Below are positions 42,821-44,344 of a DNA stretch of 50,979 nucleotides, piece after piece. This DNA comes from a phage. The DNA lies in sequence record PZ445502.1, one strand, 5' to 3'. The position numbers and the translations under genes are program-made. The notes below the pieces were generated by a model, which saw only the letters and a program-made list of their open reading frames with translations, was not told where the DNA came from and did no database searches. The first letter of the stretch is position 1, and each line of letters opens with the position of its first letter.

Positions 42821-43006
42821 ATGAAAACGAAATTAGTCCATAAATCAGAAATCAAGATCGGCGATACTGTGATTCACAACGGCGAGCTTAGAACGGTTGG
42901 CAAAGAGTCAATAAGCCACGATGAATTTATGGGGATCTTGTTGTTCGGTGACTCTTATCGTCTTGGTTACAAGATGGTTGAGCTTGTGGAAGAGGTAAAA
43001 TTCTAA
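42821..43006 (+). CDS. hypothetical protein
   Basis: 61 aa ORF. Confidence 0.4.
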   Translation: MKTKLVHKSEIKIGDTVIHNGELRTVGKESISHDEFMGILLFGDSYRLGYKMVELVEEVKF

Positions 43007-43050
43007 ATAGCACTTTTTGTTAAAACTCAAAAGCGATAACCAGGCATAAT
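43005..43050 (+). promoter_or_regulatory. motif-class promoter (motif, 22 nt, CATAAT)
   Basis: shares CCAGGCATAAT with the promoters near 42543 and 37653. Confidence 0.5.
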
Positions 43051-43252
43051 ACACACATAGACGGGCGGCAAGGATTGCTGCGGGAGAGGAGTAACGCAGG
43101 GGCTTGATCGAAGTGTCAGGATTCCCAACCGTGAGGCCAGAACTATCACACTCGCCACCAGGCAGAACGCTAGATAGGTCACTGAGCTGAGGCTACCGAC
43201 GAAGTGAAGCCCGTCACCAAAGATTAAACGGTTATTTATGTTAAAGGGGTTA

Positions 43253-43435
43253 ATGATGGATAAGATCATCAAAATGAGCGAAGTCAAGCCGGGAATGATG
43301 GTTAAGTTTGCTGGCAAATATCGCCTAGTGCTGGATAACTGCCGCAAAGAGAACATTCTTACCATTCGTGTAAATGGCAAGGCGCAGCTATTCGCCCCTA
43401 GCGCAGATATTGACGTTGAAGTTAGAATTAAGTAA
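43253..43435 (+). CDS. hypothetical protein
   Basis: about 60 aa from ATG 43253 with AAGGGG SD. Confidence 0.4.
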   Translation: MMDKIIKMSEVKPGMMVKFAGKYRLVLDNCRKENILTIRVNGKAQLFAPSADIDVEVRIK

Positions 43436-43450
43436 TTAGGAGGAAACACC

Positions 43451-44344
43451 ATGTTAAAACTTGCTGACATTAAATTCCCGATCACCTTCGAATCTCGCGG
43501 AATTGGTCATTACATTTTTACTGATGAAAAAACATGCCATAAGGTTGATTTGCATAGCTACAAGCGTGCGCCATCAAGCATGGAGATTGATCACTTCATT
43601 GATGCGCATAACAAGCACTACAACTCGCTTAAAGACTACGGCTACGCAATGCCAGGATATACCAGCTTCCACTACAAGCCATACAAGGGCCAGGTGTTAC
43701 CAGTTCGCTCACCGGAACGCGCAGAGATTCCGATGGTCAATATGAAAACCTGCGACTACAAAAAGCTGTGGTGCTTAAGTGTGGACAATATCAAGTATCC
43801 GATCACGTTCCACACAACTGGTAACTCAACGATTCGCTTCACATCACGCGACAATGGCGTTTATAGCGATGGTCAGAAATCAGGGTTGAAAGTTGATTTC
43901 TTTGTCAATGCTCACAACGATTTCAATCCGCACAACGAAAAAGATAAAGTGTACTACGTGGAAGACATTACAAAACACTTATTTGGAGAAACTCCATTCG
44001 GCGGCGGTAAGACGTCAATTCAGCAAATCATTGGCGATGAGATCCACAAAGCGGCTGCCGAAATGAAAGCGCCTGGAGGCTGGCGTATTGACAAGAGCGC
44101 CTTTGCAAATCAAGAAATCGTAACGCAGGGCGCAATTGAAGATATGCCAGTTGCAGCCACGCTAAAAGGAGTCCGGCTTGATGATGGTGTGTGGTTTGAA
44201 GTAACGGCTACACCAAAGACGTTCGAGATTCATGATGACGTTGTTATTCTTCTGCTTCACTACGGCGGCGCAAAAAACCGCACCGTTGCAGGTGAGATCA
44301 GCATCAAGCGCGGAACGATGGTTAAGTGGAAGGTCAAAGTGTAA
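43451..44344 (+). CDS. hypothetical early protein with internal tandem duplication
   Basis: 297 aa; segments around residues 5-60 and 110-165 are clear repeats (IKFPITFESRG... versus IKYPITFHTTG...). Confidence 0.5.
   Translation: MLKLADIKFPITFESRGIGHYIFTDEKTCHKVDLHSYKRAPSSMEIDHFIDAHNKHYNSLKDYGYAMPGYTSFHYKPYKGQVLPVRSPERAEIPMVNMKTCDYKKLWCLSVDNIKYPITFHTTGNSTIRFTSRDNGVYSDGQKSGLKVDFFVNAHNDFNPHNEKDKVYYVEDITKHLFGETPFGGGKTSIQQIIGDEIHKAAAEMKAPGGWRIDKSAFANQEIVTQGAIEDMPVAATLKGVRLDDGVWFEVTATPKTFEIHDDVVILLLHYGGAKNRTVAGEISIKRGTMVKWKVKV

Follow-up and report, generated by a model that had tools for sequence, protein, structure and literature searches.

An uncatalogued complex RNA fold downstream of a predicted promoter in virulent coliphages

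Sequence record PZ445502.1, a stretch of 50,979 nucleotides (nt) of phage DNA called the window here, contains an unannotated gap inside a long array of small early genes. The source is a T1-like coliphage (Drexlerviridae, Warwickvirus) with 99.6-99.7% identity to ExeQuayColi, MartyMcPhage, and tunus over 701 queried bases. From the letters alone, the original prediction had marked ~185 nt in this gap, downstream of a motif promoter, as a candidate leader or structured RNA whose ends could pair over a long range, and it had offered a small RNA, a riboregulatory leader, and a processing substrate as possible functions. The promoter it described was found as the motif ATAGCACTTTTTGTTAAA at 43007-43024 together with the hexamer CATAAT at 43045-43050. 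The segment is GC-rich as claimed, with a GC content of 0.567 at 43050-43199 compared with 0.38-0.47 in the flanks. No credible open reading frame (ORF) runs from 43051 to the next Shine-Dalgarno (SD) sequence, and every plus-strand frame of the element holds at least two stops. The SD is AAGGGG at 43244-43249, and the ATG annotated in relatives follows at 43256. The ORF track here is antisense only, consisting of a minus-strand ORF (43027-43485) that is closed in the homologs from Dhillonvirus, KMI8, L042, and BUCT618. The complementary ends were also present on the plus strand; GACGGGC lies at 43060-43066 as predicted, and GCCCGTC lies at 43209-43215 rather than near 43218. These ends close the RNA domain (43060-43215, plus strand), which comprises ~156 nt, ten helices, and two nested three-way junctions and is very probably a genuine, conserved, structured RNA.

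The fold was evaluated by comparison among homologs. When the window sequence was folded by itself, the result was no better than for shuffled sequences (minimum free energy [MFE], -48.1 versus -50.1 ± 4.3 kcal/mol; z = +0.46). Since a single sequence gives no signal, the closing stem P1 is taken as real because homologs change its sequence but keep its pairing. A 47-pair structure was written by hand, and a covariance model (R1) was built from it. The model found exactly one copy per phage with scores of 146-187 bits, and the window copy (43054-43222) scored 148 bits. With P4 alone enforced, the window sequence folded into the full consensus at -42.5 kcal/mol, compared with an MFE of -47.6 kcal/mol, and RNAalifold independently recovered P3 through P10. 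Pairing was scored in a MAFFT alignment, which is independent of the structure model, and in a separate alignment fitted to the model. In the former, 81.7% of the cells paired, compared with 72.8% in shuffles and 30-45% with slid partners, and 20 pairs had changed on both sides; on four of five measures, the observed values were reached by none or one of 500 shuffles. The corresponding figures in the model-fitted alignment were 85.9% and 26 pairs with double changes.

Because MAFFT mis-registers P1, P2, and P8 between groups, P1 was assessed by cofolding each lineage separately. P1 formed in every lineage, each time with a different sequence: GACGGGC/GCCCGUC, GACGG..GCG/CGC.CCGUC, GGCAG/CUGCC, GGGCGGCG/CGCCGCCC, GGGaGGCG/CGCCaCCC, GUCGaCAG/CUGcCGAC, and GUCGAC/GUCGAC. 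Loss of the stem in relatives had been named as grounds for abandoning the original prediction; instead, the pairing was kept while the sequence changed. The inner helices behaved similarly. The variants of P3 all pair (AGC/GC, AAC/GUU, AUC/GAU, and UGC/GUG), as do those of P10 (GCC/GGC, CCG/CGG, CCC/GGG, and CUC/GAG), and P9 occurs in 12 distinct complementary versions. Pair 37-144 of P4 is A-U in 17 sequences and G-C in 16. In P7, KA2-1 replaces GAU/GUC with GUU/AAC, and L042 replaces C-G with U-A. On the opposite strand, the G-U pairs 49-70 (invariant) and 55-62 (32 of 33 sequences) would turn into C-A mismatches, and the RNA was therefore assigned to the plus strand. A pseudoknot between the P7 loop AGUG and the invariant CACU was disfavored, as a G-to-A change in IME279 improves the P7 pair and not the pseudoknot. 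Of the checks that had been suggested for this element, covariation analysis thus supports the whole ten-helix fold, including the long-range stem, and the Rfam scan described below gave no family.

As shown in Table 1, the first three-way junction is formed by the closing stem P1, the hairpin P2, and the short stem P3. A purine-rich internal loop (GGAGA opposite GACGAA) lies between this junction and P4, which opens the second junction with two composite arms, P5-P6-P7 (arm A) and P8-P9-P10 (arm B). Approximately 68 junction and loop nucleotides are invariant across the alignments, concentrated in the blocks GGAGAGG, ACGC.GGGGC, GAUCG.AGU, GGAUUCC.AACCGUGA, CACU, AGAACGC, and AGGC.ACCGACGA.G, and the segments between these blocks vary in a compensatory manner. 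The P10 loop is a GNRA tetraloop (GAAA or GCAA) in all lineages but that of the window, in which it is ACCA.

Table 1. Features of the RNA element and its immediate surroundings, in window coordinates
Feature	Positions	Strand	Remarks
Phage promoter motif ATAGCACTTTTTGTTAAA	43007-43024	+	One of 20 window copies
-10-like hexamer CATAAT	43045-43050	+	Direct reading
P1 5' arm GACGGGC (closing stem)	43060-43066	+	Pairs with 43209-43215
P2 hairpin GCAA-GGA-UUGC	43067-43079	+	Loop GGA invariant; covaries (GCA/UGC, UGC/GCA, UAUA/UAUA)
P3 5' arm UGC	43079-43081	+	Pairs with GUG 43204-43206
Junction GGAGA	43083-43087	+	Invariant columns
P4 5' arm GGAGU	43088-43092	+	Pairs with GCU(A)CC 43192-43197
Arm A: P5 ACG/CGU, P6 GGGG/UCCC, P7 CUUGAU/GUCAGG	43094-43132	+	P7 loop CGAAGU
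Nearly invariant GGAUUCCCAACCGUGA of arm A	Within 43094-43132	+	
Arm B: P8 GGCCAG/CUGAGCU, P9 CUAUC/GAUAG, P10 CU.GCC-ACCA-GGC.AG	43135-43188	+	
Invariant CACU and AGAACGC of arm B	Within 43135-43188	+	
P4 3' arm GCUACC and junction GACGAA	43192-43203	+	Junction invariant
P3 3' arm GUG, linker, and P1 3' arm GCCCGUC	43204-43215	+	P1 3' arm at 43209-43215
Tail ACCAAAGAUUAAACGGU	43216-43232	+	Semi-conserved, A/C-rich, G-poor
First gene of the unit	43256-43435	+	59 aa, phrog_8121, function unassigned

We examined whether the element could encode a protein or belong to a known RNA family. No frame is open in all lineages, and a conserved small ORF, which the original prediction had allowed might have been missed, was not found among the homologs. 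The UUG start of the plus-strand ORF is missing in Dhillonvirus and Lumpael, the lineages differ by 1-nt indels, and the variable columns split 7:4:3 over the codon positions with no third-position bias. As the element is not coding, the coding sequences (CDSs) annotated over it in some records are probably spurious, and the element exposes such "hypothetical protein" annotations in public databases. The overlapping ORFs and annotations, namely the minus-strand ORF of the window, CDS0077 of ExeQuayColi, QIG65642 of PT1, and Bas97_0052 of HeidiAbel, are not conserved. A search of the whole window against Rfam 15 at the gathering score gave no family over the element. At E ≤ 10, the region gave only a chance snoRNA match on the minus strand, and 11 homologous loci gave nothing on the element and no riboswitch family. 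ARAGORN reported zero tRNA or tmRNA genes in the window and the 11 loci, in agreement with the initial view that the segment is not a tRNA. Full-text literature searches, the sequence itself included, turned up no description. Fremin et al. 2023 (PMC10690425) catalogued 10,006 anonymous phage RNA candidates, and the element may be one of them. A literature match to ACCGACGAAG was an unrelated spacer. Likenesses to the flavin mononucleotide (FMN) element, the 5S loop E region, and the GGAGAG of the glycine riboswitch were set aside, none being backed by Rfam. The fold is thus complex and uncatalogued, and it is widespread among model coliphages.

The distribution of the element was surveyed by BLASTN, which located a segment of ~165 nt in 171-173 phage records. 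The carriers are enterobacterial siphophages of several unrelated groups, and only virulent phages are among them. Approximately 134 records hold a Dhillonvirus-type copy, including HK578, JL1, SSL-2009a, and BASEL phages, and ~22 are T1-like Warwickvirus or Hanrivervirus; KMI8 and PHB17 are further carriers in the Drexlerviridae. The siphophage carriers of 38-44 kb are Jilinvirus PT1, Murrayvirus Lumpael, Sortsnevirus IME279, Arya, KA2-1, Serratia MQ-4, BUCT618, and HeidiAbel_Bas97. Between groups, identity is 73-87% within the element, and blastn similarity stops at the flanks. The stretch is unannotated in most of these records. No copy was found by BLAST in 5,426 Escherichia coli genomes and 72,556 plasmids, and a pattern scan of 185,579 species genomes returned only one chance coding match and one mis-binned phage contig. 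Degenerate pattern scans (three viral and one metagenome) added a single new lineage, L042/L087; many other matches were coding sequences that failed the covariance model. The occurrence of multiple copies per genome was rejected, because the record showing three places is an assembly roughly twice as long as one genome. P-GXEC-L2P5 (PQ843332.1, 88.6 kb) corresponds to approximately two joined Dhillonvirus genome lengths, and its copy of the element is garbled. "Campylobacter phage A144" (MG065648.1) carries a Dhillonvirus copy that is 98.8% identical, and a 42.7-kb contig labeled "Cereibacter sphaeroides MAG" (QFQS01000013.1) is an IME279-like phage.

A predicted promoter precedes the element in every lineage, and the element begins within a few nucleotides of the predicted start. 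In the T1-like phages, KMI8, Lumpael, and L087, it is a phage motif promoter, and in Dhillonvirus and BUCT618, it is a near-consensus sigma-70 promoter. The phage motif has 20 matches in the window, compared with 1.75 expected, and its orientation is always that of the downstream genes. In the window, the start predicted from the -10 hexamer is approximately A43057, 3 nt ahead of P1. The spacing from the hexamer to P1, read by eye, is 7-10 nt in 16 lineages, and from this spacing the 5' end of the transcript should lie 0-3 nt before P1; a helix within ~0-4 nt of the 5' end holds if transcription starts ~7 nt after the hexamer. The other gene-preceding motif promoters in the window have leaders of only ~25 nt. 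The motif reads ATAGCAC-N4-TGNTAAA, with plus-strand sites including 1566, 30551, 31600, 42544, 43007, 44345, 47033, and 48327 and minus-strand sites including 6209, 9959, 20737, 37697, 39895, and 41199. In most copies, a TAATNN or TAGTNN hexamer follows 22 nt on, then the ~25-nt leader and an SD. The 22 nt between motif and hexamer exceed the spacing of a sigma-70 -35/-10 pair and suggest an activator-dependent class of phage promoter. The phages of 38-44 kb (L002, L014, L021, L063, L064, and L065) share a block, TTGATAGGTAnAAACGnTT...TTTACC, ~60-100 nt upstream of the RNA and ahead of the -10 hexamer, which may be a group-specific operator or promoter element.

On the 3' side, P1 (7-8 bp) is followed by a G-poor, A/C-rich tail. 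RCC occurs 0-2 nt after P1 in 16 of 25 distinct variants, and UAAC lies ~10 nt after P1. A full CCA is not conserved after P1, and near-identical copies differ at this site (ACCA in the window and ACUC in L044). A tail with RCC and UAAC resembles a tRNA-like RCCA end or a landing site for the ribosome or S1; a boxA-like reading (CUUUAAC) was set aside, as it fits some lineages only. The SD lies ~20 nt past P1, outside the conserved block, and SD and start codon together are mostly reached ~30-35 nt past P1, or up to ~60 nt past it in MQ-4, PT1, and HeidiAbel, which have an additional hairpin in between. In 20 loci, no terminator was found between the RNA and the next gene, and inspection revealed no conserved alternative fold in which the SD is paired.

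The small genes directly downstream encode unrelated proteins, even behind nearly identical RNAs (BUCT618, L018, and L052). These proteins fall into six different PHROGs without assigned function and have no Pfam match, and a conserved downstream partner protein was thereby ruled out. In the window, the flanking genes at 42821-43006 (61 aa, phrog_3623) and 43256-43435 have similar N-termini (KSEIKIGDTV versus MSEVKPGMMV) and may be distant paralogs. In the phages of 38-44 kb, the unit consists of a terminator, a promoter, the RNA, 1.3-1.8 kb of small genes, and a terminator, after which BUCT618 has a promoter-like site. In Dhillonvirus, the element heads a rightward early operon, divergent from the primase and helicase genes, with an intrinsic terminator (GGCCCGC-loop-GCGGGCC and a U-tract) 0.5-0.76 kb after the RNA (L003 2322-2341; equivalents in L019 and L117). 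The loop of this terminator varies in sequence, and the next gene begins ~20 nt after it, so that the early genes beyond it require either read-through or an overlapping promoter. No terminator was detected in the 6 kb downstream of the element in the window.

Several T1-like relatives provide natural variants without the core. In SECphi27, tonnikala, aaroes, and pSf-1, the promoter and flanks are as in the window, and both the RNA core and the gene for the 59-aa protein are absent. At the corresponding position after the promoter (~840-880 in L061 [SECphi27]; also in L112, L113, and L114), these core-less relatives keep a hairpin of 7 bp, GGGCGGC/GUCGCCC, whose arms are of the P1 type, and it is followed by the tail AAAACCAAUCAGGAG. 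The loops of this mini-hairpin differ between two sub-lineages (GCGGU versus ACGGC). In vB_EcoP_06 (L115), a mini-hairpin unit (307-420) is followed by a full-RNA unit (844-1060), each with its own motif promoter. As the core is lost in close relatives, it is dispensable in T1-like phages, and the retention of the P1-arm hairpin with differing loops suggests selection on a 5'-terminal helix.

Based on this arrangement, we tentatively favor a generic cis-acting 5'-leader domain of the operon transcript, in which promoter, structured RNA, and A/C-rich tail would form a mobile module. This reading is favored because the RNA is always joined to a promoter and an ORF without a terminator of its own, because it is indifferent to gene identity, and because the P1 hairpin is kept after core loss. 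In E. coli, mRNA decay dependent on RppH and RNase E depends on the 5' end. P1, 0-3 nt from the predicted 5' end, would bury the terminus and could shield the message from decay. For a conserved host factor, the compact invariant core might act as a binding platform or roadblock; RNA polymerase, RNase E, the ribosome or S1, and CsrA, which would use GGAGAGG and the GGA of the hairpin loop, are candidates. The unstructured, G-poor tail would deliver the transcript to the ribosome, whatever the next ORF is. Several observations weigh against such a leader. Approximately 68 invariant nucleotides and ten helices far exceed the needs of a 5' stabilizer, so the core must have some further role. The window has 18 other motif-promoter sites without a 5' hairpin, and a 5' cap is therefore no general requirement. 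The mini-hairpin could be a neutral remnant of a deletion, and the paired ends and the frequent ACC after P1 fit a discrete processed RNA equally well. A more far-reaching proposal, which we consider rather unlikely, is that of a new class of phage riboregulator with a fold unrelated to any known RNA family. Its core would be a receptor for a host protein, RNA polymerase, the ribosome, or a small molecule such as an immune signaling nucleotide, and, expressed from a strong promoter, it could reprogram expression or blunt host defense.

The main alternative, possible but doubtful, is a discrete RNA that accumulates and acts in trans, titrating a host factor or a component of anti-phage defense as a decoy or sponge. 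Its 5' end would be the transcription start itself or an RNase P cut at the foot of P1, and its 3' end would result from cleavage in the A/U/C-rich tail and trimming to P1, with the downstream genes merely using its promoter, as with the P1 c4 RNA or the T4 stable RNAs. It would account for paired ends, a 7-8-bp terminal stem followed by RCC in 16 of the 25 variants, and a module kept independently of its neighbors. The element is accessory in the Drexlerviridae, where ~22 records have it and near-identical relatives do not, and in the phages of 38-44 kb, it stands first in a short unit that runs from terminator to terminator and has swappable cargo. Its occurrence in virulent phages only, with no copy in the E. 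coli chromosomes, plasmids, and bacterial species genomes searched, points the same way. However, no copy at the 20 loci stands alone or has its own terminator, the ACC tail is not universal (ACCA in the window and ACUC in the near-identical L044), and ARAGORN detects nothing tRNA-like. Also promoter-proximal and independent of the identity of the downstream gene, as HK022 putL (PMC9378689), would be a put-like RNA, in which the nascent transcript binds its RNA polymerase and suppresses pausing or termination across the operon. The strong intrinsic terminator of Dhillonvirus 0.5-0.76 kb downstream, with the next gene 20 nt beyond, would give such an RNA a purpose. We nevertheless regard it as improbable, as put is ~70 nt with two stem-loops, whereas the element has ~156 nt, ten helices, and no sequence likeness. 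Moreover, the first downstream terminator in the 38-44-kb group simply closes the 1.3-1.8-kb unit, and the T1-like genomes restart transcription from motif promoters every one to three genes, so read-through is unneeded there.

The remaining alternatives concern what the fold itself might do. Junctions with invariant nucleotides, a GNRA-capped arm, a position in the 5' untranslated region (UTR), and a conserved, covarying fold as riboswitch aptamers require would suit a ligand-sensing RNA, either a riboswitch whose platform is unconventional or an aptamer sponging a small molecule such as an immune signaling nucleotide. This is quite improbable, because there is no expression platform (no terminator in 20 loci, and the SD outside the conserved pairing), the downstream genes are functionally unrelated, no Rfam riboswitch matched at E ≤ 10 in 12 homologous loci, and the window copy has ACCA in place of GNRA. 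Self-cleaving ribozymes are common at intergenic, co-transcribed positions in phage genomes. The element occupies such a position and has a compact conserved core with invariant unpaired nucleotides, but a ribozyme processing the 5' end of the operon transcript is very unlikely, since the element matches no known family, offers no candidate cleavage site, and exceeds most self-cleaving classes in size. The proximity of the element to primase or helicase genes in several phages and the CDSs annotated over it in some records could point away from RNA altogether, to a DNA element (a replication origin or a protein-binding site), to a small protein gene that was overlooked, or to chance. We find this hardly credible in view of the compensatory changes, including strand-specific G-U pairs, and of the absence of a frame shared by all lineages, the 1-nt indels, and the lack of codon-position bias; dispensability in close relatives also argues against a sole origin.

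The element moves between unrelated groups of virulent coliphages and is seemingly present in every Dhillonvirus and dispensable in T1-like phages. Its carriers include model phages, namely the BASEL collection, HK578, and tunus-like phages plating on E. coli K-12; tunus was isolated on E. coli K-12 MG1655. As natural plus (window-type) and minus (SECphi27-type) variants exist, its function is testable by standard phage genetics, and the roles open to such tests are mRNA protection, transcription elongation, and counter-defense.

Among known systems, HK022 putL and putR resemble the element in being phage RNAs just past an early promoter, co-transcribed with and indifferent to the genes that follow; put RNA, of ~70 nt, has a triplex and two stem-loops arranged as a V (PMC9378689). 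The element has ~156 nt and two nested three-way junctions, the two share no sequence similarity, and a need for read-through is not evident in most carriers. The 5' stabilizers, such as the hairpin of the E. coli ompA 5' UTR and the 5' hairpins of phage early mRNAs, place a helix a few nucleotides from the 5' end, as is predicted for the element. The mini-hairpin of the relatives looks exactly like such a simple stem-loop, whereas the element has a conserved multi-helix core of ~140 nt inserted in the hairpin. The C4 family of Rfam comprises the P1/P7 c4 and P4 CI RNAs, which are embedded in leaders, carry an acceptor-like stem followed by CCA, and are processed by RNase P. The element is likewise a structured RNA in a phage operon leader and has a terminal stem of 7-8 bp, but it has no Rfam match, is about twice the size, and has RCC in only 16 of the 25 variants. 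Because the downstream genes differ, downstream targets of the c4 kind cannot be conserved for it.

Riboswitch aptamers, for example c-di-GMP-I, share with the element a 5'-UTR position, multi-helix junctions, invariant unpaired nucleotides, and a GNRA-capped arm; the element differs in having no Rfam match, expression platform, or related downstream genes. A local likeness to the FMN element (GGGGC...AUUCCCNACCG) is unsupported by Rfam. The repeat consensus of CsrB is CAGGA(U/C/A)G, and the P2 loop of the element similarly shows CAGGAUG or CAGGACG, with GGAGAGG 10-17 nt away. However, the CsrB and RsmZ sponges consist of many simple GGA hairpins, and the element has one, its other invariant parts lacking GGA; a third GGA, in P7, is base-paired and becomes GAA with a compensating change in L042. 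The T4 stable RNAs, species 1 and 2 (rnaD and rnaC), lie in the tRNA cluster. These and other orphan phage RNAs are, like the element, phage-encoded, structured, and co-transcribed with other genes, and no sequence or family relation to them was found. Complex, strongly conserved RNA folds are rare, and follow-up work has repeatedly identified them as riboswitches, ribozymes, guide RNAs, or protein sponges.
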